From the NCBI GenBank assembly GCA_000989515.1, contig LBOM01000003.1:111833-175832 (forward strand): 64,000 nt of DNA. The letters are read 5' to 3'. This document shows, piece by piece, positions 9,892-64,000 of the stretch. The notes below the pieces were generated by a model that was not told where the DNA came from, searched no databases, and saw nothing but the letters and a program-made list of their open reading frames with translations. Made by a program: the position numbers and the translations under genes. Numbering within the stretch: position 1 is the stretch's first letter; every line of letters starts with the position of its first letter. Source of the stretch: Candidatus Nomurabacteria bacterium GW2011_GWE1_32_28 (lineage in GTDB: Bacteria > Patescibacteriota > Minisyncoccia > Phycocordibacterales > UBA9973).

Positions 9892-10551
9892 ATGATAAAA
9901 ATACAATCAATTGTACGAGATATTGTATTAGCAGAAATAGAGGCTTATTTTGCACTCACAAATGACTATATGAATATGAGTAGTTATGCATATCGTATAC
10001 GTCCAAAGGTAGAAGAACTTACAAAAAAACAAGTAACCATAACTAGTCTAGTGGTTTCACTGTCTCGTCTAAAAAAAGAATTTAAAAAGATGAAACCATT
10101 GATACATAATGTAGCTATAAAAAATATAACAACCAAGCTCCCTCTCTCAGAACTAATATATAAAAATACAAATGAGTTTATAAAAGAATTAGAGTCGCTT
10201 CATAAGAATATATCAATATCTCAAGAAGATTTTTTCACTACGACGATAAGTACAACAGAAATAGACATTCTCTGTTCTACTATACTAGAAGACAAAATAT
10301 TAAAACATTTTAAAAATAAACCAAAAACAACAAATCACAACCTTGCAGCGATAGGTATCTCTTTTGGGTCAGAAGTCTTTGATACTCCAAATGTTTTTTT
10401 CTCTCTCCTTTCTGTCACCGCCCGCGCAAGTATAAACATAGAAGAATTGGTTTCTACACCAACTGAATTTATTTTAATAGTTGCTGAAAAAGATTTCAGT
10501 AAAACCGTTGCTTTGTTTTCAAACCTATACAGAGAAGTAAATAAAATATAA
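9892..10551 (+). CDS. Hypothetical protein
   Basis: 219-aa ORF with coding-like composition and no recognisable family. Confidence 0.5.
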   Translation: MIKIQSIVRDIVLAEIEAYFALTNDYMNMSSYAYRIRPKVEELTKKQVTITSLVVSLSRLKKEFKKMKPLIHNVAIKNITTKLPLSELIYKNTNEFIKELESLHKNISISQEDFFTTTISTTEIDILCSTILEDKILKHFKNKPKTTNHNLAAIGISFGSEVFDTPNVFFSLLSVTARASINIEELVSTPTEFILIVAEKDFSKTVALFSNLYREVNKI

Positions 10552-10576
10552 AATTATTATCTACCCAATAAAAAAA

Positions 10577-10716
10577 GCATTAATCTCTAAACAATCCTTT
10601 TAAAGCTAAACCCTAAAAGTAACAAATTCTTGAAGGATAGACCCAGAAACCCAAAAGGTACCAAGACGTCCTACGCAAACCTATATAACCGATGGCTGAT
10701 TGCTTAGAGATTAATG
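10577..10716. repeat. 140-nt element with 20-bp terminal inverted repeats (candidate MITE or structured ncRNA) upstream of ruvB
   Basis: GCATTAATCTCTAAACAATC at 10577-10596 and GATTGCTTAGAGATTAATGC at 10697-10716 match 19/20 as an inverted repeat and flank a ~100-nt core. Confidence 0.4.
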
Positions 10717-10859
10717 CCCTCTTAAAACAAAAAAGGTCTTAAACCTCTGTAGATAATTATACTATATTATCAACTAATCAAATGCTATAATGTGTATAGC
10801 AATGTGGATAGCGTGTTAATAATTAGCTACATATAGAAGCATAGCATACTATAAAAAAA

Positions 10860-55573: not shown

Positions 55574-56083
55574 ATGACAGTTATAAAAAATAAAGAACAG
55601 AGAGTGGGTGTTTTTATTGATACTCAAAATTTATATCATTCAGCTCGCAACTTGTATAAGGCGAGAGTAAATTTTGGTGCTGTTTTGAAAGAAGCAGTAG
55701 CTGGCAGAAAGCTTGTTCGTGCGGTAGCTTATGTTATCACTTCTGAGGCAGGAGATGAAAAGAATTTTTTTGAAGCACTTGAAAAGTTGGGAATTGAAAC
55801 TAAGACAAAAGACTTACAGGTGTATTATGGTGGTTTTAAAAAAGGTGATTGGGACGTCGGTCTTGCTGTCGATGCTATTAAATTTGCACCGAAGCTCGAT
55901 GCTGTCGTATTAGTCGCTGGTGATGGGGATTATGTGCCTATGGTAGAATATATTCAGAGTATGGGAGTACAAGTAGAGGCAATTTCATTTGGTAAATCAA
56001 CTTCTGGTAAGCTTCGTGAAGCAGTTGATGATTTTATAGATCTTTCTTTGAATCCAAAGAAATATTTAATAGGAATGAGGTAG
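55574..56083 (+). CDS. NYN-domain (LabA-like / DUF88) protein inserted between rpsO and pnp
   Basis: 169 aa. GVFIDTQNLYHS...GDWDVGLAVDAI...VLVAGDGDYVPMVEYIQSMGVQVEAI is the NYN/LabA PIN-like pattern. Confidence 0.7.
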   Translation: MTVIKNKEQRVGVFIDTQNLYHSARNLYKARVNFGAVLKEAVAGRKLVRAVAYVITSEAGDEKNFFEALEKLGIETKTKDLQVYYGGFKKGDWDVGLAVDAIKFAPKLDAVVLVAGDGDYVPMVEYIQSMGVQVEAISFGKSTSGKLREAVDDFIDLSLNPKKYLIGMR

Positions 56084-56199: not shown

Positions 56200-58344
56200 A
56201 TGCAAAAAAAAGAGTATTCGGTAGAGATAGGTGGTAAGATATTAACCGCTATTTTCTCAAATTTAGCAGAACAAGCACATGGTTCAGTAATTTTAAAATA
56301 TGGTGAGACTATTGTGCTCGCTACGGCTTGTATGTCTAAAGACAGACAAGATGGTTTAGGGTTTTTTAATTTAACAGTAGATTATTTAGAAAAATATTAT
56401 GCTGTTGGAAAAATTTTAGGTTCTAGGTTTATGCACAGAGAAGGTAAACCATCAGAGGATGCAGTGCTCGCTTGTCGAGTAATAGACAGGACACTACGTC
56501 CACTTTTTGATCAGTCCATGCGTCATGCAGTGCAGATAATAGTTTCTGTCCTATCCTTAGACCAGGAAGATCCTACTATTTTGGCTGTGAATGCAGCTTC
56601 TCTTGCTCTTGCTGTCTCTGATATTCCTTGGGCAGGTCCTGTAGGAGCTGTACGTATTGGTAAATATGATAGTGATATTTTAACAGTGAGTCCCGCACAG
56701 AGTCTGAGAGAAGATGATTCTAAATATAAATTTGATCTTACTATTTGTGGAAAGGGTGGCAATATAAACATGATTGAAGCTGCTTCTCATCAGGTAAGAG
56801 AAGAAGAATTAGAAGAAGCATTTAAAAAAGCAAGTGAAGAAATAACAAAATTAGAAGATTTTCAAAAAAAGATAGTTGCAGAAATAGGTATCCCTAAAAG
56901 AGTAATAGAAAAAGAAAAGATAAGTGAAGAATCTATAAAATTATTTAATGAAAATATTTTGCCTAAAATGGAAGGAGCTTTGTTTTATGGTGTTGGTAAA
57001 AAGAAAATAGACGAATTACATAGTATTTGGAATAAAATGGTAAAGGATAATTATCCAGATAGGAAAGATTTTTCTCCTGAAGATGATCTTTTTGATAATA
57101 CAGAAAACGAAATGTTGCATAAAAAAGCTATTGATGAAGATAAGCGTGCTGATGGTAGAAAAATGGATGAACTTCGTGATCTATATGCTCAAGCTGGAGG
57201 ACTTTCTTCTATATTGCATGGTAGTGGGATTTTTTATCGTGGTGGAACACATGTACTTTCTGTTCTTACTCTTGGTGGTCCAGAGGATAAACTTTTGATA
57301 GATGGAATGGAAGCAAAAGAAGAAAAAAGATTTATGCATCATTATAATTTTCCTCCTTACTCAGGTGGTGAAGTCGGACGTACCGGTAATACTAATCGTA
57401 GAGAAGTAGGACATGGTGCTCTTGCTGAAAAAGCCTTGGCGATGGTACTGCCCTCTGTGGAAGAATTTCCTTATACTATGCGTTTAGTTTCTGAATCTAT
57501 GGCTTCCAATGGTTCTACCTCTCAAGCTTCTATTTGTGCTTCTGTTCTTGCACTTATGGATGGTGGAGTACCAATAAAAGCACCAGTTGGTGGTATTGCT
57601 ATGGGACTTATGATGGAATCAATTACGAATGAGCAATTACGAATTACGAAAGAACCTAGATACAAAATACTTACAGACATACAAGGACCAGAAGACCATC
57701 ATGGTGATATGGATTTTAAAGTTGCTGGTACAAGAGAAGGAGTGACAGCTATTCAACTTGATGTAAAAGTGGAAGGAGTACCAATAAAAATATTAGCTGA
57801 AGCTATGATTCAAGCTAAAATTGCAAGACTTGCTATTATAGATAGAATTGAAAAAGAAATTCCAAAAGCTAGAACTGAAATTTCTAAAAATGCCCCAAAG
57901 ATTTTAATTATAAAAATTAAGCCAGACCAAATAGGTATGGTTATAGGTGGAGGTGGAAAAACTATTAAAGATATAAAAGAAAGAACTGGTGCTGAAATAA
58001 CTATTGAAGATGATGGAACGGTATATCTAACAGGAAAAGATGATAAGGCAGAAATGGCAAAGAAAATAATTGAAGAAATGACACATGAATTTAATATTGG
58101 AGAAATTCTAAAAGGTGAAGTTGTAAGAATTGCAGATTTTGGAGCTTTCGTGAGACTTAATCCTTTTACTGATGGTATGGTTCATATTTCTGAAATGGCA
58201 CCATTTCGCGTAGAAAGAGTTAGTGATATTATAAAGGAAGGTATGATAGTGCCTGTGAAGATTTTGAAAGTTGATAGAGAGCAAGGCAAAATAAGTTTGT
58301 CTATCAAAGAAGCAGATAAAGATTTCTTCGCACCTAAAAAGTAA
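56200..58344 (+). CDS. pnp: Polynucleotide phosphorylase
   Basis: 714 aa. Two RNase PH domains, KH (IGMVIGGGGKTIK) and S1 (GEVVRIADFGAFVRL). It carries an in-frame heptad repeat at 57619-57650 encoding ESITNEQLRITKE. Confidence 0.95.
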   Translation: MQKKEYSVEIGGKILTAIFSNLAEQAHGSVILKYGETIVLATACMSKDRQDGLGFFNLTVDYLEKYYAVGKILGSRFMHREGKPSEDAVLACRVIDRTLRPLFDQSMRHAVQIIVSVLSLDQEDPTILAVNAASLALAVSDIPWAGPVGAVRIGKYDSDILTVSPAQSLREDDSKYKFDLTICGKGGNINMIEAASHQVREEELEEAFKKASEEITKLEDFQKKIVAEIGIPKRVIEKEKISEESIKLFNENILPKMEGALFYGVGKKKIDELHSIWNKMVKDNYPDRKDFSPEDDLFDNTENEMLHKKAIDEDKRADGRKMDELRDLYAQAGGLSSILHGSGIFYRGGTHVLSVLTLGGPEDKLLIDGMEAKEEKRFMHHYNFPPYSGGEVGRTGNTNRREVGHGALAEKALAMVLPSVEEFPYTMRLVSESMASNGSTSQASICASVLALMDGGVPIKAPVGGIAMGLMMESITNEQLRITKEPRYKILTDIQGPEDHHGDMDFKVAGTREGVTAIQLDVKVEGVPIKILAEAMIQAKIARLAIIDRIEKEIPKARTEISKNAPKILIIKIKPDQIGMVIGGGGKTIKDIKERTGAEITIEDDGTVYLTGKDDKAEMAKKIIEEMTHEFNIGEILKGEVVRIADFGAFVRLNPFTDGMVHISEMAPFRVERVSDIIKEGMIVPVKILKVDREQGKISLSIKEADKDFFAPKK
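57619..57650 (+). repeat. Heptad repeat (AATTACG orientation), in-frame in pnp
   Basis: tcaattacgaatgagcaattacgaattacgaa. Confidence 0.8.
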
Positions 58345-58387
58345 TTATATTTACTAAATATATTCACAAGTTGAACTTGCCTGAGTT

Positions 58388-59305
58388 TTGGGTTTTTTGA
58401 GTAAATTTTCTATAAATGTTAAAATAAACAAAATGGAAAGTGATAACAAATTAAAAAATAAAAATGTAGAAACTTTTGCTGGAGATATGGTGAAAGCTAT
58501 AGAAAGCGATAGGGGTGGATTAATTAAAAAAATAATTCAGGAAGAAGAAAAAAAAGAAGCTCAAAAGAAAAATTTATCTCCAAAATCAGCTCAGAATAAA
58601 ACTTTCTTGATTGTAGGTTTTTTACTTTTAATAATAACCTTTTTAATTTTGATATTTTTGTTTGTTTTTAATAAAAATGTTGGTACAGCATTAATCCCAT
58701 TACAACATACTTCAGTTATTTTTACTGATCAAACAATTTTTAAGGAGATTGATAGTTTGTCAAAAGACAAGATAGCGAATGTCGTTCTGAATGAAAAAAA
58801 TAATACTAAAACAAAGATTGGAGGTATTGAAAGTATTTATCTTACAGAAAATAAAAAAGTTATAGATTTTAGTAGATTTATCTTGCTTATAAAAGGTAGT
58901 TTAAATTCTGACCAACTTCGTCTTTTTTATGATAATTTTTTGCTTGGTATATTTAAAAGTGGTTTAAACTCTTCTTCTCCTGATGCAGGAGATTTATTTA
59001 TTTTATTAAAGGTCAAATCTTTTACTGATATATTTCCCATAATGCAGGTCTGGGAAAATAAAATGTTGTATGATTTCTATGAGTTTTTTGAAATAAAAAT
59101 TTCTCCAGAAACTAATTATTTGTTTACCAAAGATTGGGAAGAAGATATTGTTAGTAATAAAAATGCACGAATTCTTAGAGATAATACTGGAAAAATTATT
59201 TTGATGTATGTATATGCTGATGATAATTCTATTATTGTAACTGATTCAGAAAATGCAATAAACGAAGTAGTTTTAAGGCTTAATTCTAGTAAGATAAAGA
59301 AATAA
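58388..59305 (+). CDS. Hypothetical single-TM membrane protein
   Basis: 305 aa with TM FLIVGFLLLIITFLILIFLFVF. The start may be the internal Met at 58433. Confidence 0.45.
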   Translation: MGFLSKFSINVKINKMESDNKLKNKNVETFAGDMVKAIESDRGGLIKKIIQEEEKKEAQKKNLSPKSAQNKTFLIVGFLLLIITFLILIFLFVFNKNVGTALIPLQHTSVIFTDQTIFKEIDSLSKDKIANVVLNEKNNTKTKIGGIESIYLTENKKVIDFSRFILLIKGSLNSDQLRLFYDNFLLGIFKSGLNSSSPDAGDLFILLKVKSFTDIFPIMQVWENKMLYDFYEFFEIKISPETNYLFTKDWEEDIVSNKNARILRDNTGKIILMYVYADDNSIIVTDSENAINEVVLRLNSSKIKK

Positions 59306-59375
59306 AAATAATGGAAAAAGGTCTTTTCTTGAAGAGTATCCGCCAGCTGGTGGAGATGGGAAAAAGAAAGACCTT

Positions 59376-62156
59376 GTGGAGTTTGTGTGGTATTATTTAT
59401 TTATGGATAAAGAGCTTGTAAAACAGAATGTTCAAAAACTTGTAGAAAAATATGAAATTGTAAAGAGAGATGGAAAATTAAGAACTTATTCCGAAGAGGA
59501 TACGATTCAAGGATTTGTTTTACCTCTTCTTGAAATACTTGGTTGGAATATTAGAGATAAAAACGAAGTTTCTTCTCAAGATCATATAAAAGGTTCTGGT
59601 AGACCTGATCACACACTTAAAATAAATGGAATAACTCAATTTTACTTAGAATCAAAAAAACTCAGTGTTGATTTAGATGACGAAATATTTTCAAAACAAG
59701 TAATAAATTATTCTTGGAATACTGGTGTAACCTATGCTATTTTAACTGATTTTGAAAGTATTAAGGTTTTTAATGCACAAAGAATAGATAAGACTGATTT
59801 AATGGACAAACTTGTTTTTGAACTTTCTTATAATAAATACGTTTCAGATTTTGAAATTTTATGGCTTCTATCAAAAGAATCTTTTCAAAAGAAAACTTTA
59901 GATGAATATGCTGAAAAAATTGGGAAAAAAGAAAAATCTGTGCAAGTTTCCACTGTTATAAAAAAAATTAATGAGGATATTCAAGATTGTAGAGAATGGC
60001 TCACTAACGAATTTAAAACTTGGAATGAAAAGCTAAATCTTTCAAAAGATATGATTGATGAAGGAGTACAAAAACTCTTAGATAGGTTAATTTTTCTTCG
60101 TGTTGCCGAAGATAGAGAGGTAGAACCAAATATTTTAAAAAATTTATTGAGAGAAGCTGAAAAAAGTAAAAGTTATAAGCCATTTCAGGCGATGTCTATA
60201 ATTTTTAGAGAGTTAGATAAAATTTATAACTCTAATCTTTTTTCACCTCATCCTTTCGAAAGTTGGGAAATAGTAGATGACAAAGGATTTGAAAAAATGA
60301 TAGAAAAACTTTATGGCAAGAAAGGTCAATATGAATATAATTTTAAAGAAATGCCCGCTGATGTACTAGGGACTGTTTATGAAAATTATTTAAATTATAA
60401 ACTTACTCAATCAAAAAAAGGTGTAAATGTTGAAAAAGATGTTAAAAAAAGAAAAGAGCAGGGAATTTTTTATACTCCCACTTTTGTGGTGGATTATATT
60501 GTTAGAAATGCGTTAAAACCAGTTTTAGATAATTGCAAAAGTGTGGCTGACCTGAAAAAGATAAAGGTATTAGATCCTGCTTGTGGTTCTGGGTCTTTTC
60601 TTATTAGAGCACTTGAAGCTATCACAGAAAAGTATAAAGAATTTGGAATTGATGGATCTGTAAAAAGACAAATAATTTTAGAAAATCTTTTTGGTGTTGA
60701 TTTAGATATGCAAGCAGTAGAGATTGCTCGTCTTAATTTACTTATCAATTCTCTTGATTTAAAAGAAATTTTACCAAAATTAAATAATAATATAAAAAAT
60801 GGAAATTCTCTAATTTCTGGAACTGATGAAGAAATGGAAAAACAATTTGGCAAAAATTGGAAAGATAAAAAACCATTCAATTGGCAAGAAGAATTTCCTG
60901 ATGTGTTCAAACAGGGTGGTTTTGATGTAATTATCGGTAATCCTCCTTATGTTAGGCAAGAAGAAATAAAAGAAGACAAAGAAATATTTTCACAACTTTT
61001 TCCAAATGTGGCGAATGGTACCGCTGATTTGTATGTTTATTTTTTTGAAAGAGCGATACAACTATTAAAAAATAGTGGATATCTAGGTTTTATCATTTCA
61101 AATAAATTTATAAAAGCTGGATATGGGAAGAATTTAAGGAAATATTTAAAAGAAAGTTTGAGTATTAAACAACTAATTGATCAATTTAATAAAAAGGTTT
61201 TTGAAGATGCAGTTGTTGATCCTTGTACGATTATAATTAAGAAAGAAAAACCACTAAAAAATAGCCATATTTTATACAATTATGAAACAAATATTCTACA
61301 AGCTAATCTTAATGAAAGTGGATGGACTTTTGCAAATGAAGAATCTTTAGATTTAAAAAGTAAAATTGAAGAAAAAGGTAAAAAAATAAAAGATTGGGAG
61401 GGGGTCAATATAAGAAGAGGAATTGTTACAGGATTAAATGAAGCTTTTATATTAAATTTAGACAACAAAGAGAGGTTTATTGAAGAAGATAAAAATTGTG
61501 ATGTTTTAATAAAACCTTTATTAGCTGGAAGAAACATAAAAAGGTATCTTGCTGGTTTTGATAATAAATTTTTGTTAAAAATTATTCAAGGGAGCAATAT
61601 TGATGATTGTGAACCTATAAAAAATCACTTATTAAAGTTTAAAGATGAATTGTCTGAACGATGGGAACCAAAAAATGGAAAAATAAAATGGTTTGAGTTA
61701 AGGTCATGTGTTTACTATGAAGAATTTGAAAAACCAAAAATAATTTATCCTGATATATCTGATACTGGTGGTTTTTATTGGGACGATGAAGGATATTTTT
61801 TAAATAATACTATATATATGATTACTGGTAATATTAAAAAATCATGGGTTGGTTTATTAAATTCTAGATTAATTAGTTGGTATTATAAAAAGATAGCTTC
61901 TGGCCTTGGTGAAGGAGGAGTGAGATATTTCACTCAATTTGTTAAAGAATTACCAATTCCAGAAAATACTGAATCATTAGATAATTTGACTCAAAAAATG
62001 CTTGATTTAAATAAAGAATTAAAAAAAATATTAGAAAACTCAAATGAATGGGAAAATATAAAATCTGAAATTGAAAAAACTGATAAAAAGATTAATGAAG
62101 AAGTTTATGGTCTTTATGGATTAAATGAAAAAGAAATAAAAATTATAGAGAAATAA
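59376..62156 (+). CDS. Type IIG/IIL restriction-modification fusion enzyme (MmeI-like: N-terminal PD-(D/E)xK nuclease, gamma-class N6-adenine methyltransferase, C-terminal target-recognition domain)
   Basis: 926 aa. N-terminal ...GRPDHTL...FYLESKKL (D...ExK). MTase motif I VLDPACGSGSFL and motif IV IIGNPPYV. Size and architecture match single-chain MmeI-family enzymes. Confidence 0.7.
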   Translation: MEFVWYYLFMDKELVKQNVQKLVEKYEIVKRDGKLRTYSEEDTIQGFVLPLLEILGWNIRDKNEVSSQDHIKGSGRPDHTLKINGITQFYLESKKLSVDLDDEIFSKQVINYSWNTGVTYAILTDFESIKVFNAQRIDKTDLMDKLVFELSYNKYVSDFEILWLLSKESFQKKTLDEYAEKIGKKEKSVQVSTVIKKINEDIQDCREWLTNEFKTWNEKLNLSKDMIDEGVQKLLDRLIFLRVAEDREVEPNILKNLLREAEKSKSYKPFQAMSIIFRELDKIYNSNLFSPHPFESWEIVDDKGFEKMIEKLYGKKGQYEYNFKEMPADVLGTVYENYLNYKLTQSKKGVNVEKDVKKRKEQGIFYTPTFVVDYIVRNALKPVLDNCKSVADLKKIKVLDPACGSGSFLIRALEAITEKYKEFGIDGSVKRQIILENLFGVDLDMQAVEIARLNLLINSLDLKEILPKLNNNIKNGNSLISGTDEEMEKQFGKNWKDKKPFNWQEEFPDVFKQGGFDVIIGNPPYVRQEEIKEDKEIFSQLFPNVANGTADLYVYFFERAIQLLKNSGYLGFIISNKFIKAGYGKNLRKYLKESLSIKQLIDQFNKKVFEDAVVDPCTIIIKKEKPLKNSHILYNYETNILQANLNESGWTFANEESLDLKSKIEEKGKKIKDWEGVNIRRGIVTGLNEAFILNLDNKERFIEEDKNCDVLIKPLLAGRNIKRYLAGFDNKFLLKIIQGSNIDDCEPIKNHLLKFKDELSERWEPKNGKIKWFELRSCVYYEEFEKPKIIYPDISDTGGFYWDDEGYFLNNTIYMITGNIKKSWVGLLNSRLISWYYKKIASGLGEGGVRYFTQFVKELPIPENTESLDNLTQKMLDLNKELKKILENSNEWENIKSEIEKTDKKINEEVYGLYGLNEKEIKIIEK

Positions 62157-62222
62157 TTAAAGTATTATTTGAGACAGATAAATTAATGAAAAAAATTGAT
62201 GAAATTGAGGTATAATAGATTT

Positions 62223-63065
62223 ATGAAAACTGAAATAATAAAATCACTTTTAAATAAATTTGAATCTTGTGCCCACAAAACGGATCAAGGGATAGAATTT
62301 TGGTTGGCAAGAGACTTGCAACAACTTTTAGGTTATACAAAATGGGATAATTTTTTAGCTGTTATTTCAAAGGCTAAAATATCTTGTGAAGTAATGGAAC
62401 ATAAGGTATTAGACCATTTTGCTGATGTCGGGAAAATGGTCAAAATAGGATCTGAAAGTGAAAGAGAAATAGACGATATAATGCTTACAAGACTTGCTTG
62501 TTATTTTGTTGCTCAGAACGGAGATTCTAGAAAAGAAGAAATTGTTTTTGCAAAAAATTATTTTGCTGTTCAAGCTAGGAAGTTTGAAATAATTGAAAAA
62601 AGAATACAAGAGTTTGAAAGAGTTAGAGCTAGACATAAATTAATTGAAACAGAAAAAGAATTATCTAGTGTTATTTATCAACAAACAAAAAATGATAAAA
62701 ACTTCGGATTAATTCGTAGTAAAGGAGATAAGGCTTTGTTTGGATATACAACTCAAGAAATGAAAAGTCGGTTAAAAATTCCCGATAATCGTGCTTTGGC
62801 AGATTTTCAACCAACTATTTTATTGAAAGCTAAAGACTTTGCAACAGAAATAACAATTTTTAATACAAAAAATAAAGAATTAAAAACTGAACAAGCAATC
62901 TCGGAAGAACACATTATAAATAATAGAAGTGTCAGAAAAACTTTGATTAGTCGTGGTATCCGTCCAGAAAATTTACCAATAGAAGAAGATATTAAAAAAA
63001 TTGAAAGAAAAATTGAATCTGAAAATAAAAAAAGTTTAAAAAAGCCGGATAAATTAGAAAAGTGA
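62223..63065 (+). CDS. dinD: DNA-damage-inducible protein D (DinD, Bro-N family)
   Basis: EFWLARDLQQLLGYTKWDNFLAVISKA and LTRLACYFVAQNGDSRKEEIVFAKNYFAVQARKFEI align with the E. coli DinD blocks (EFWSARELAPLLDYRDWRNFQKVLARA; LSRYACYLVVQNGDPAKP...TYFAIQTRRQEL). The start is taken at the ATG 7 nt after TATAAT. The ORF-track start is at 62196. Confidence 0.8.
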   Translation: MKTEIIKSLLNKFESCAHKTDQGIEFWLARDLQQLLGYTKWDNFLAVISKAKISCEVMEHKVLDHFADVGKMVKIGSESEREIDDIMLTRLACYFVAQNGDSRKEEIVFAKNYFAVQARKFEIIEKRIQEFERVRARHKLIETEKELSSVIYQQTKNDKNFGLIRSKGDKALFGYTTQEMKSRLKIPDNRALADFQPTILLKAKDFATEITIFNTKNKELKTEQAISEEHIINNRSVRKTLISRGIRPENLPIEEDIKKIERKIESENKKSLKKPDKLEK

Positions 63066-63102
63066 TAGTTTCAGTTGCCTTTTTAATTGAAAGTGTTAGT
63101 AT

Positions 63103-63465
63103 TTGTGTATGTTAGATAAGAAAAAAATTAAAGAAAAGTTGGAGAAAGAGAGAGATATGCTTCTTGGGCAGATTCGTGATATTGGAAAATTAAATCCTGA
63201 GACAAATGAATGGGAAGCAATTCCAGAAGAAAGAGATTGTAGAGAATCAGATCAAAATGATATGGCTGATAGATTTGAAGATTTTGAAGCTAGAAGTACT
63301 ATGATAAAAGTTTTAGAAACTAGATTAAATAACATTTTGGGTTCGCTTGATGGATTAAATAAAGTATCTTTTGGTAAATGTGAGGTATGTAAAAAAGATA
63401 TTGAGATGGCTCGCATGGAAGTTAACCCTGCTGCAAAAACATGCAAAAAGCATTTGAATAATTAG
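63103..63465 (+). CDS. DksA/TraR-family C4 zinc-finger protein
   Basis: 120 aa. N-terminal coiled-coil, acidic tip (EERDCRESDQND) and C-terminal CEVCKKDIEMARMEVNPAAKTCKKH. Confidence 0.65.
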   Translation: MCMLDKKKIKEKLEKERDMLLGQIRDIGKLNPETNEWEAIPEERDCRESDQNDMADRFEDFEARSTMIKVLETRLNNILGSLDGLNKVSFGKCEVCKKDIEMARMEVNPAAKTCKKHLNN

Positions 63466-63587
63466 TATAAGAATATCTAAAACAAACTACAAAATTCAAA
63501 AAATTTTTAAGCCTTCATCCCTAGAGCAAGAAGGACAGGGGACCCGTGACTTTAAAAATTTTTTAATCTTATGGTTTCTATAAAATT

Positions 63588-64000
63588 ATGAGTTTTGCAA
63601 AAGTTTATTCAGCACAAGTAAATCTTCTATATGGACAAATTGTAACGGTTGAAGTTGATTTGTCGAAGGGTATGCATACATTTAATGTGGTGGGTCTTCC
63701 TGATAAGGCAGTAGATGAATCTAAAGACAGGGTAAGTTCAGCTATTAAAAATTCTGGTTTTAAATCACCTAAAGCTAAGAATCAAAAGATAATAGTTTCA
63801 CTTTCACCTGCTGATCTTAAAAAAGAAGGGCCATTTTTTGATCTTGCTATTGCTCTTGCCTATATGCTTGCATCTAATTATTTAAAATTTAATCCAGAGA
63901 AAAAGATTTTTTTAGGTGAGCTTGGACTTGATGGAACATTACGATGTATTAGGGGTGCATTGCCTCTTGTAATGGAAGCTAAACGTGCTGGATATGAAGA
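63588..64000 (+). CDS. comM: YifB/ComM-family Mg-chelatase-like ATPase (N-terminal part, runs off window end)
   Basis: MSFAKVYSAQVNLLYGQIVTVEVDLSKGMHTFNVVGLPDKAVDESKDRV...LSPADLKKEGPFFDLAIALA is the ComM/YifB N-terminal Lon-like domain. Confidence 0.8.
   Translation, partial: MSFAKVYSAQVNLLYGQIVTVEVDLSKGMHTFNVVGLPDKAVDESKDRVSSAIKNSGFKSPKAKNQKIIVSLSPADLKKEGPFFDLAIALAYMLASNYLKFNPEKKIFLGELGLDGTLRCIRGALPLVMEAKRAGYE

Follow-up and report, generated by a model that had tools for sequence, protein, structure and literature searches.

In Escherichia coli, DinD is LexA-regulated (PMC6590174), and a passage of PMC4849656, with Uranga et al. 2011 among its references, names it among the regulators ensuring the removal of RecA filaments. 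The family is also known from restriction-modification (RM) loci: publications already mention fusions of DinD with HsdS as well as DinD genes lying within Type I loci (PMC4996451, PMC9881135), and the HsdS-DinD fusion Btr190I stays active (PMC4996451). RM-embedded DinD is moreover the PADLOC candidate PDC-S13, the PDC sets being candidates found by guilt-by-embedding (bioRxiv 10.1101/2024.01.29.577857). The original prediction, according to which an RM enzyme combined with DinD and a TraR-like regulator is not a described system, was thus half true. DdrC, which is induced by DNA damage and senses nicks and double-strand breaks, is described as having no identifiable sequence homologues beyond Deinococcus (PMC11347143).

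The window analysed here is a stretch of 64,000 nucleotides. Its host, Candidatus Nomurabacteria, is a tiny, uncultured groundwater bacterium. A four-gene islet next to comM had been proposed in it, encoding a membrane protein, a Type IIG enzyme, a DinD protein and a TraR/DksA-like protein. All four open reading frames are present at that place on the + strand, but each start had been set too far upstream, and exact-sequence look-ups with those starts gave no match. The membrane-protein and DksA-like frames now begin further downstream, at 58433 and 63109. The large frame is real, but it encodes 917 aa instead of 926, from ATG 59403, as indicated by conserved MDKE/MNK N-termini in 17 homologues and by database gene calls. 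The DinD frame is likewise real and has 280 aa, not 289, from ATG 62223, a start on which homologue alignments and the databases' gene calls agree. Of the four family assignments, three are upheld. The locus comprises the following features:

58433..59305, + strand: single-TM protein, 290 aa, TM segment aa 58-79 (nt 58604-58669), flanking, outside the insertion
59310..63074, + strand: inserted segment of ~3.77 kb with the Type IIG and DinD genes, missing from the syntenic site of related genomes
59320..59373, + strand: G+C-rich hairpin in the gap between the membrane-protein and Type IIG genes, just within the insertion
59403..62156, + strand: single-chain Type IIG restriction-modification enzyme, 917 aa, with an Eco57I-type methyltransferase core
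62157..62222, + strand: 66-nt spacer between the Type IIG and DinD genes, breakpoint between the histories of both
62223..63065, + strand: DinD-family protein, 280 aa, DNA-binding N-terminal domain of Bro-N/KilA-N type, then a long helix, then a helical C-terminal domain
63075..63102, + strand: promoter-like motif of the dksA-like gene (TTGCCT, 16 nt, then TGnTAGTAT), right edge of the insertion
63109..63465, + strand: DksA-like protein, 118 aa, DxxDxA tip, CxxC...CxxH zinc finger, flanking, outside the insertion

The insertion consists of two genes, those of the Type IIG enzyme and DinD, and not of four. In the window it interrupts the order rpsO-NYN-pnp-membrane protein, dksA-like-comM-...-S24 peptidase-hup-rny between the membrane-protein and dksA-like genes. 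Gene maps of three related Nomurabacteria/Paceibacteria contigs share the array rpsO-NYN-pnp-membrane protein-dksA-like-comM, and neither an RM gene nor DinD occurs in it there. In the empty-site relatives L083, L085/L086 and L087, the membrane-protein gene directly adjoins the dksA-like gene, followed by comM. The breakpoints were mapped by blastn against L083, L085 and L087, with left-arm homology stopping at 59308-59309 and right-arm homology restarting at 63075. PNPase is 82-83% identical to that of the relatives, and the insertion site carries other cargo in relatives. The RNA fold of 59306-59402 has a minimum free energy of -23.9 kcal/mol (z = -2.47), and the hairpin within it could represent a terminator or what is left of the cassette end. 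Both inserted genes are of kinds already catalogued.

The large protein had been called MmeI-like, which stands only for its fused architecture. Pfam places it with the Eco57I type (Eco57I, 155 bits; also N6_Mtase, TaqI_C and MmeI_Mtase), while the domains MmeI_N, MmeI_hel, MmeI_TRD and MmeI_C gave no Pfam match; in the 926-aa numbering, Eco57I spans 436-609 and N6_Mtase 329-642. The PADLOC model REase_MTase_IIG was matched at 1.9e-111. Conservation was assessed in 17 homologues of 46-82% identity, and the enzyme is laid out as follows:

59403..59897, + strand: N-terminal PD-(D/E)xK nuclease domain, aa 1-165
59493-59495, + strand: nuclease residue E31, invariant in 17 homologues
59607-59609, + strand: nuclease residue D69, invariant in 17 homologues
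59649-59657, + strand: nuclease residues E83-S-K85, with E83 and K85 invariant in 17 homologues
59697-59711, + strand: QxxxY motif Q99-Y103, with Q99 and Y103 invariant in 17 homologues
59898..60407, + strand: helical linker from nuclease to methyltransferase, aa ~166-335, from the AF2 model
60408..61322, + strand: gamma-class N6-adenine methyltransferase domain, aa ~336-640
60573-60599, + strand: methyltransferase motif I, DPACGSGSF, invariant in 17 homologues, verified by translation
60939-60950, + strand: methyltransferase motif IV, NPPY, with NPP invariant in 17 homologues, verified by translation
61323..62156, + strand: target-recognition domain (TRD) of TaqI_C type (Pfam, 2e-16) and conserved C-terminal helix

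The AF2 model of the nuclease domain (pLDDT 87.8) has an alpha-beta-beta-beta-alpha-beta core. Its best Foldseek matches in the PDB are DrdV (7lo5), BpuSI (3s1s), HsdR (3h1t), RecU, Hjc and EcoR124I HsdR, a coherent set with numerically modest scores (best E 6e-4, TM 0.3). Precomputed PF04313 (HSDR_N) matches are present in most homologues, and the nuclease is assigned to the HsdR-N type. The linker is modelled as all-helical across residues 182-304, and the whole N-terminal region aligns with DrdV over 316 columns (Foldseek). Among PDB sequences, the methyltransferase part matches CamA (1.4e-30), M.BseCI and BrxX. The TRD region is swapped between homologues that are otherwise 60-70% identical, e.g., P0250, P0264, P0296 and P0309, a pattern typical of active specificity evolution. 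As had been proposed, nuclease, gamma-class methyltransferase and specificity domain are fused in one chain, and no second methyltransferase gene lies within ~10 kb on either side. Because the nuclease and methyltransferase residues are invariant, the predicted fold is nuclease-like and the Pfam and PADLOC models are matched, the enzyme looks intact and self-sufficient; with its nuclease domain present, it is not an orphan methyltransferase. By analogy with characterised Type IIG enzymes, from which we infer its activity and one-strand methylation, the single polypeptide would read an asymmetric site, methylate an adenine within it and so mark self DNA, and cut unmethylated incoming DNA at a fixed distance.

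The assignment of the second inserted gene to the DinD family was confirmed by NCBIfam NF008573 (330 bits, cut-off 242) and by a full-length match to PADLOC PDC-S13 (5e-108, 358 bits), and Pfam Bro-N was found at 5.5e-09. Searches that included Pfam, NCBIfam, PADLOC and PHROG revealed neither an enzymatic nor a toxin domain. The protein is 62-79% identical to homologues in Patescibacteria, Proteobacteria, Verrucomicrobia, Planctomycetes, Bacteroidetes and Cyanobacteria. Its identity with E. coli K-12 DinD is only 33% over 257 aa, so the RecA biochemistry of the latter may not be transferable. The AF2 model is of mixed quality (mean pLDDT 61; the N-terminal 125 residues below 50). DdrC chains take the first six places among its Foldseek matches in the PDB (E 1e-4 to 3e-2, probability 1.00), and the best match after them has E 0.6; the superpositions have an rmsd of 12-13 A, TM 0.37-0.47 and 16-17% identity, and no sequence similarity between DinD and DdrC was detectable. 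The predicted DinD thus resembles the two-domain architecture of DdrC, a new lead from a mixed-confidence model.

As a family, DinD is strongly linked to RM genes. In a sample of 75 loci from different species, an RM gene lies within two genes of DinD in 44 (59%), namely Type III Res+Mod in 25, Type I in 15 and DpnI-like in two. The RM share is 46-48% at one gene's distance, 8-13% at two and at most 2% past four, on either side. The commonest context is Type III Res-DinD-Mod, and the DinD start often overlaps the preceding RM gene by 4 bp. One PADLOC Specificity_I model includes a DinD-like N-terminus. Since the RM partner type varies while DinD remains 62-79% identical across phyla, the target of DinD would be universal. 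DinD can also work without an RM partner, because the other 31 of the 75 loci have no RM gene nearby and the E. coli dinD gene is solitary, between yicC and yicG. The window DinD belongs to a very highly conserved, horizontally mobile subfamily whose members regularly lie within RM operons, whatever the type. The association of DinD with RM genes, as originally suggested, is therefore real in general.

For the locus itself, we consider it probable that a two-gene variable insertion occupies a hot spot in a conserved housekeeping array, an intact Type IIG enzyme and a mobile, RM-associated DinD with separate histories being flanked by core genes. The expected conserved neighbourhood of DinD and this enzyme was not found. 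The enzyme's relatives of 81%, 60%, 60% and 57% identity have no DinD beside them, and among 80 more distant loci a single one has a fragment of it. In the sister genome L089, DinD is present at the same site (86% aa identity) with the same DinD-dksA junction, and a TrmB-HTH gene and an NDT-like gene stand upstream in place of the Type IIG gene. Homology between the window and L089 begins at 62201, 22 nt before the DinD ATG (83.7% identity, blastn), which places the breakpoint between the two histories in the spacer; a blastn of the window against L089 gave no Type IIG remnant. As the two genes have separate histories here, functional coupling between them is plausible but not obligatory.

These observations also favour a plain coincidence at the hot spot, in which DinD is a stand-alone genome-maintenance protein as in E. 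coli and the Type IIG gene landed or was swapped in later, with no interaction. The other cargo at this site in relatives, the solitary E. coli gene and the 31 RM-free loci point the same way. We nevertheless regard this account as doubtful, since the window DinD belongs to the 62-79% subfamily with its frequent RM neighbours and stop/start overlaps, DpnI-like restriction genes follow DinD in another Nomurabacteria genome and in a Saccharibacteria genome, and here the two genes lie on the same strand, 66 nt apart.

It is less likely still that DinD is a second-line effector of abortive-infection type which guards the RM enzyme, as in the PrrC/EcoprrI model, staying inactive while restriction works and being released when a phage inhibits it. 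Within Type I and Type III operons, DinD does sit where RhuM, Fic/Doc and further embedded genes are also found, and Fic and RhuM turned up in the same slots in the sampled loci; guilt-by-embedding has put it among PADLOC's phage defence candidates, and close relatives of the Type IIG gene carry a Fic (SoFic-like) or Cas4-like nuclease gene in the equivalent downstream slot. However, such an effector is hard to reconcile with a protein in which no enzymatic or toxin domain was detected and which persists in many loci without any RM gene, and its extreme conservation across RM types speaks against a partner-specific latch.

The flanking genes are ordinary core syntenic genes, apparently unconnected with the insertion, because their array is kept in relatives that have neither the RM gene nor DinD. 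Orthologues of the membrane protein (58-63% identity) come directly after pnp in relatives whether or not these carry the insertion; as had been noted, the protein is uncharacterised, with one TM segment and no match in Pfam, NCBIfam, PADLOC or PHROG. The dksA-like gene lies between membrane-protein or variable-cargo genes and comM in four of four related genomic contexts, and its product is 81-88% identical to the relatives' orthologues. comM is indeed next door, starting at 63590. The claim of a TraR/DksA-like C4 finger holds in part: zf-dskA_traR is matched at 26.1 bits (cut-off 24.9) and the DksA tip motif DxxDxA is present, but the protein falls below every NCBIfam DksA and TraR cut-off and its finger reads CxxC...CxxH instead of C4, without exception in 120 homologues. 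Homologues number 1115, nearly all of ~118 aa and from Nomurabacteria/Paceibacterota. The promoter-like motif is the same in the window, L083 and L085, with a variant form in L087 and L089. The products of both inserted genes match PADLOC models, those of the two flanking genes none. DksA-family proteins are transcription regulators, DinD carries a DNA-binding Bro-N domain and all four genes lie on one strand with short spacers, yet the originally proposed regulated defence/stress cassette of membrane sensor, Type IIG enzyme, DinD and TraR/DksA regulator is contradicted by the empty-site synteny, by the dksA-like gene's own conserved promoter-like motif and lineage-wide homologues and by the two proteins without PADLOC models, and it is hardly credible even in the weaker version with DinD as a C-protein-like controller of RM transcription, as a controller bound to a specific sequence would not keep 62-79% identity from one unrelated RM operon to the next.

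Within the two-gene insertion that we favour, DinD probably does not serve one particular partner as its subunit or regulator. Most likely, it would be a sequence-independent binder of DNA or DNA breaks that acts downstream of cleavage, and it could bind restriction-generated ends and/or restrain their RecA-dependent processing. We infer this whole role from the published inhibition of RecA filaments by E. coli DinD, the Bro-N/KilA-N fold and the predicted DdrC-like architecture; going by the title of Uranga et al. 2011, it is the postsynaptic RecA filaments that DinD reportedly inhibits.

Among known systems, the enzyme compares best with Eco57I-type, DrdV- and BpuSI-like Type IIG enzymes, which likewise run from nuclease through helical linker and gamma-class N6-adenine methyltransferase to specificity domain, and the predicted N-terminal fold is closest to DrdV and BpuSI. 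Eco57I has the companion M.Eco57I, whereas the window enzyme has no companion methyltransferase, and the N-terminal, spacer, TRD and C-terminal domains of the MmeI family were undetected in it. The nearest sequences to its methyltransferase and specificity part are the orphan methylase CamA and M.BseCI. E. coli DinD (PcsA), an SOS-induced RecA modulator, falls in the same NCBIfam equivalog as the window DinD, but it is only 33% identical, solitary and LexA-regulated, while the window gene stands beside a Type IIG gene. DdrC of Deinococcus radiodurans and the predicted DinD are built similarly, with a winged-helix-like domain at the N-terminus joined by a long helix to a helical bundle at the C-terminus, and both are DNA-damage-response proteins; the two have no detectable sequence similarity, and the N-terminal model of DinD is poor. 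Like PrrC/EcoprrI, RhuM and Fic/Doc, DinD is an accessory gene that shares the strand of the RM genes which surround or adjoin it, but it differs from PrrC/EcoprrI and other RM-embedded genes in showing no nuclease, ATPase or toxin domain. PDC-S13 (Payne et al., bioRxiv 10.1101/2024.01.29.577857) is likewise RM-adjacent and its HMM is matched by the window DinD over the full length; the PDC candidates were derived from Type I RM, BREX and DISARM systems, as genes lying within them, whereas the partner of DinD in the window is a single-gene Type IIG enzyme.

The four open reading frames lie on the same strand, enclosed by pnp (56200-58344) and comM (start 63590). The alignments of homologues and the database gene calls showed that the starts first proposed were too far upstream for all four ORFs. 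The proteins with those starts had no exact-sequence match in the database, and the versions beginning at the ATG codons were matched. Identical 917-aa and 280-aa proteins are also encoded on contig DPKL01000005.1 of assembly GCA_003542535.1 and on about two dozen further contigs. As had been proposed, the first ORF encodes an uncharacterised single-TM protein, and it was without a family in every library searched. The locus contains the following features (window positions):

55574-56083: NYN-domain gene (predicted RNase), 169 aa, between rpsO and pnp, kept in all relatives examined
58433-59305, + strand: membrane-protein gene
59320-59373: G+C-rich hairpin GGTCTTTTCTT...AAGAAAGACC around the near-palindrome CCGCCAGCTGGTGG, within the insertion and close to its left boundary
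59403-62156, + strand: Type IIG gene, start ATG 59403, 917 aa
60573-60599, + strand: gamma-class N6-adenine methyltransferase motif I, DPACGSGSF
60939-60950, + strand: gamma-class N6-adenine methyltransferase motif IV, NPPY
62223-63065, + strand: DinD gene, start ATG 62223, 280 aa
63075-63111: TTGCCT-16 nt-TGnTAGTAT motif of the dksA-like gene, the -10 element ending 6 nt before ATG 63109
63109-63465, + strand: dksA-like gene

Relatives with an empty site were found on contigs of relatives of the DksA-like protein, which has 1115 homologues, nearly all of about 118 aa and from Nomurabacteria/Paceibacterota. Three of them (L083, L085/L086 and L087) carry the array rpsO-NYN-pnp-(272-304-aa protein)-dksA-like-comM-64 aa-S24 peptidase-hup-rny-clpP-tig, within which no restriction-modification (RM) gene and no DinD gene is present. 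In this array the window membrane protein is represented by the 272-304-aa protein, its orthologue (58-63% identity); for the same relatives, the identities are 82-83% for PNPase and 81-88% for the DksA-like protein. In the blastn comparison, the left homology arm reached window position 59309 and the right arm began at 63075, where it opens with the promoter-like TTGCCT motif, which is conserved at the empty sites. The two arms and the gene order of the empty sites thus place the insertion at 59310-63074, with the Type IIG and DinD genes only. The genes of the membrane protein and the DksA-like protein belong to the core and only happen to border a hot spot, and the original prediction of a single four-gene islet fails, as the relatives have these two genes adjacent, with neither a Type IIG nor a DinD gene. 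Of the proposed set of defence and stress genes, the four ORFs and the Type IIG and DinD calls stand; by synteny two of the genes are core flanks, and the relatives show that the remaining pair is not conserved for this enzyme.

Base composition showed no clear difference between the insertion (GC 0.23-0.30) and the adjacent membrane-protein gene (0.25-0.26), so that composition does not delimit the insertion. The region of the hairpin (59306-59402) folds with an MFE of -23.9 kcal/mol (z -2.5), and the hairpin could be a terminator or the relic of a cassette end. The promoter and terminator consensus scan of 58200-63700 was uninformative, since in this A+T-rich DNA the number of promoter-like sites (32) equals the expectation from shuffles (29.6).

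The core array has features of its own. The rpsO-pnp arrangement is a classical gene pair, and the NYN gene between the two is an unusual insertion. In L087 (3091-6961), the NYN gene and pnp are separated by an insertion of a RelB/YafQ toxin-antitoxin pair plus two small genes, and pnp itself is called as two ORFs (403 and 312 aa), perhaps through a frameshift or an error of assembly. An S24-peptidase (LexA-like) gene of 192 aa lies two genes downstream of comM, about 3 kb past the window end (16038-16616 of L001, the database contig matching this locus), and it is conserved across all relatives examined.

The description of the fourth ORF as a TraR/DksA-like C4 zinc-finger protein is only partly borne out. 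The protein barely passed the Pfam zf-dskA_traR cut-off (26.1 vs 24.9), and it carries DxxDxA, the coiled-coil tip motif of DksA, which was found in 118 of the 120 closest homologues. However, it missed the NCBIfam cut-offs of DksA_like (41.7 vs 105), dksA (30 vs 115.5) and TraR (23.4 vs 59.7), and its finger is CxxC...CxxH (C3H), as in all 120 homologues, while the canonical finger of DksA/TraR proteins is C4. As the -10 element ends so close to the ATG, the dksA-like mRNA may be leaderless.

The large ORF matched the Pfam families Eco57I (PF07669, 2.6e-45, 155 bits), N6_Mtase, TaqI_C and MmeI_Mtase (59 bits), as well as the PADLOC model REase_MTase_IIG (1.9e-111). Residues E31, D69, E83, K85, Q99 and Y103 are invariant across 17 homologues of 46-82% identity, and they form a PD...ExK motif plus QxxxY, the pattern of HsdR-type nuclease domains. 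The same homologues also share DPACGSGSF and NPP(Y), the methyltransferase motifs, without variation. A PD-(D/E)xK nuclease, methyltransferase motifs I (xDPACGxGxF) and IV and a specificity domain are therefore all found in one polypeptide. A sequence profile of the N-terminal 310 residues had no meaningful match in the PDB, and the nuclease relatives were seen by fold comparison only. Precomputed HSDR_N matches exist for most homologues. The AlphaFold (AF2) model of the N-terminal region (pLDDT 87.8) has an alpha-beta-beta-beta-alpha-beta core, and its best Foldseek matches in the PDB were DrdV (7lo5), BpuSI (3s1s), the HsdR fragment 3h1t, RecU, Hjc and the HsdR of EcoR124I. In its methyltransferase and specificity part, the enzyme aligns with CamA, M.BseCI and BrxX. 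Homologues that are 60-70% identical over the first two-thirds bear unrelated specificity domains, the usual sign of specificity swapping.

The prediction of a nuclease domain in this ORF was thus confirmed by the invariant residues and the fold, which rule out an orphan methyltransferase. Likewise, no other methyltransferase gene lies within about 10 kb, in agreement with the proposed absence of a separate one. Taken together, the invariant motifs, the nuclease fold, the specificity domains and the lack of a second methyltransferase identify the ORF as an intact single-chain Type IIG enzyme, for which we infer activity and strand-specific methylation. Enzymes of the MmeI family (Type IIL) modify one strand and have no separate methyltransferase. 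The label MmeI-like is true of the fused architecture and not of the family: only MmeI_Mtase matched, and MmeI_N, MmeI_hel, MmeI_TRD and MmeI_C had no match at E <= 0.01, so that this domain content rules out membership. Weak MmeI_N and MmeI_hel matches, below the cut-off, were present in a distant relative (L161).

The proposal that DinD is a conserved neighbour was not borne out for the relatives of this enzyme. Downstream of the closest relative found (81% identity) lies a small gene in the opposite orientation, and the next genes after relatives at 60%, 60% and 57% identity encode a SoFic-like Fic protein or a Cas4-like PDDEXK_1 protein, or are small ORFs. In the two loci with 60% identical enzymes, the slot of DinD holds a 448-aa Fic protein (L170, 7898-9244; PADLOC SoFic 3e-42) and a Cas4-like PDDEXK_1 protein with a 176-aa ORF (L171, 7760-8991), a pattern suggesting that the place downstream of this enzyme family is an accessory position of variable content. 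Among 80 metagenome loci with more distant relatives, DinD was matched in one, as an 87-aa fragment two genes downstream. In this locus (L161, 5923-11262), the Type IIG gene is followed by a 378-aa protein without a family call, a DUF5131 protein, the DinD fragment and nuo genes; it is the only other Type IIG and DinD islet found, and it is degenerate.

In a sister genome (L089, 119-5068; DksA-like protein 88% identical), a DinD gene (protein 86% identical) is found at this site too, and its junction with dksA is the same. The place of the Type IIG gene upstream of it is taken by a TrmB-HTH gene and a nucleoside-deoxyribosyltransferase (NDT)-like gene: between the membrane-protein and dksA-like genes lie the NDT-like gene (minus strand), the gene of the 254-aa TrmB-HTH protein and DinD. 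DNA homology with the window begins 22 nt ahead of the DinD ATG, and tblastn found no Type IIG remnant in L089. L089 has a further insertion after pnp and before the membrane-protein gene, which encodes a 571-aa protein without a family; neither this nor the NDT-like and TrmB-HTH proteins had a PADLOC match. The four genes are therefore not co-inherited, with DinD present in L089 without Type IIG and Type IIG relatives present elsewhere without DinD, and the two inserted genes have separate histories at this locus. These histories would fit a purely coincidental juxtaposition of the two genes at a hot spot, to which we give a minor though appreciable chance, set against the RM association of DinD as a family.

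The third ORF belongs to the DinD family as predicted. It scored 330 bits against the NCBIfam equivalog NF008573 (PRK11525; cut-off 242 bits, profile positions 1-288), contains a Bro-N domain and matched the PADLOC phage defence candidate PDC-S13 (PDLC04919; 5.4e-108) over positions 1-277 of 281. A scan with one genome per species gave at least 481 relatives. The best 80 of these are 61-79% identical to the window protein, and they come from Patescibacteria, Proteobacteria, Verrucomicrobia, Planctomycetes, Bacteroidetes, Cyanobacteria, Nitrospirae and others. In Pfam scans, the genes immediately upstream of DinD matched ResIII (12 loci) and N6_Mtase/HsdM (7), and those immediately downstream N6_N4_Mtase (20), Methylase_S (5), HsdR (4-5), DpnI (2) and Eco57I (1). 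The RM genes, labelled by iterated searches from six seeds, were counted by gene offset.

RM gene share of positions by offset from DinD
Offset +/-1: 46-48%
Offset +/-2: 8-13%
Beyond +/-4: <=2%

An RM gene lies within two genes of DinD in 44 of 75 loci (25 Type III Res-DinD-Mod, 15 Type I and two DpnI-like). The Type III arrangement, in 25 of 75 species genomes, consists of a Res helicase-nuclease (about 1020 aa), DinD and a Mod methylase (about 940-990 aa), in which a stop codon often overlaps the next start by 4 bp (L017, L031-L034, L043, L059, L070, L073, L077, L079, L082 and others, with DinD at about 10001-10840 in each). In L070, for example, DinD is flanked by a ResIII and RE_endonuc protein and by a PADLOC MTase_III (1427 bits). 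The start of DinD overlaps the stop of the upstream gene by 4 bp in many loci, and one PADLOC Type I specificity model has a DinD-like N-terminus.

DinD is thus, as a family, strongly RM-linked. An active HsdS-DinD fusion is on record (PMC4996451), DinD/RhuM genes sit between Type I core genes (PMC9881135), and the PADLOC PDC sets comprise 145 candidates, listed as untested, that derive from 'guilt-by-embedding' in Type I RM, BREX and DISARM systems (bioRxiv 10.1101/2024.01.29.577857). No relevant paper came up in the literature searches for PDC-S13 by name, for DinD with RhuM, for DdrC with DinD or for DinD together with type III restriction. The counts and these records show that the link is real but already catalogued, so that the statement that this is not a described system holds only in part. 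The predominance of Type III embedding in this sample goes somewhat beyond the existing catalogue: Res-DinD-Mod outnumbers the embedding in Type I loci, the arrangement on record in published work.

No enzymatic domain was detected in DinD by Pfam, PADLOC, NCBIfam and further searches, and neither the single sequence nor a profile had a match in the PDB. Across phyla, DinD is very highly conserved while the type of its RM partners varies, which points to a universal target, such as DNA structure or RecA; an action through a partner-specific interface or operator is unlikely. The E. coli DinD is LexA-regulated (PMC6590174), and a passage of PMC4849656, which has Uranga et al. 2011 in its references, cites it among the proteins ensuring RecA filament removal. 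The AlphaFold model, from a shallow alignment, has a mean pLDDT of 61 (good for residues 130-250, poor at the N-terminus). Its six best PDB matches were all DdrC chains (E 1e-4 to 3e-2, probability 1.00, about 225 aligned columns), and the next match had an E of 0.6; the BFVD viral structure library gave weak matches only, to KilA-N proteins. DNA damage induces DdrC, a homodimer in which a long helix connects a winged-helix-like N-terminal domain to a helical C-terminal domain. It traps nicks or double-strand ends in pairs and has been described as without identifiable sequence homologues outside Deinococcus (PMC11347143).

On balance, the locus probably combines a Type IIG enzyme with a mobile, RM-associated DinD between unrelated flanks; our confidence in this anatomy is high, and in the mechanism of DinD it is low. 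The stand-alone enzyme would mark self DNA by adenine methylation and cut foreign DNA, DinD would probably act after cleavage, on DNA breaks or RecA, and the flanking genes would be unrelated to either. A bolder and rather unlikely extension is that RM-embedded DinD is a DdrC-like nick or end sensor and a universal, type-independent restriction co-factor. It would attach to the breaks that Type I, IIG, IIM and III enzymes introduce, and would either prevent the RecA-mediated rescue of cleaved invader DNA or soften the damage done by self-restriction. The position of DinD beside RM genes would also suit a PrrC-like second-line effector guarding the RM enzyme, a role that we consider doubtful for a protein with no detected enzymatic domain. 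The regulated four-gene cassette, or a C-protein-like role for DinD, is highly improbable given the core nature of the flanking genes and the changing RM partners.

Little of the finding as first proposed is left: the Type IIG enzyme is ordinary, RM-linked DinD is a defence candidate already catalogued as untested, and the other two genes are neighbours with housekeeping roles. The locus shows, with cleanly defined boundaries, how genes turn over at a hot spot of a reduced Candidate Phyla Radiation genome, the slot holding different cargo in sister genomes. Moreover, the neighbourhood counts provide quantitative evidence of a highly conserved DinD subfamily inside RM operons of several types, with Type III Res-DinD-Mod as the commonest context, beyond the Type I, BREX and DISARM basis of the PADLOC candidate. 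The structural lead may tie DinD to the DNA-break sensor DdrC; such a link would suggest an accessory protein able to serve any restriction enzyme by working on the breaks and not on the enzyme. If the co-factor role were true, the long-unexplained SOS gene dinD would gain a physiological part in anti-phage defence, and the 'Deinococcus-only' DdrC would have relatives across bacteria.

Compared with known systems, the window enzyme shares its predicted nuclease fold with DrdV (Type IIL) and BpuSI (Type IIG), and its methyltransferase core is of the same type as in the Eco57I system. Unlike that system, which has a separate M.Eco57I-like methyltransferase gene, the window enzyme is without one in L001, and its neighbours are the membrane-protein gene and DinD. 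The DinD of E. coli K-12 is 33% identical to the window protein, and its gene is solitary there, between yicC and yicG. Finally, the predicted secondary-structure elements of DinD appear in the same order as those of DdrC.
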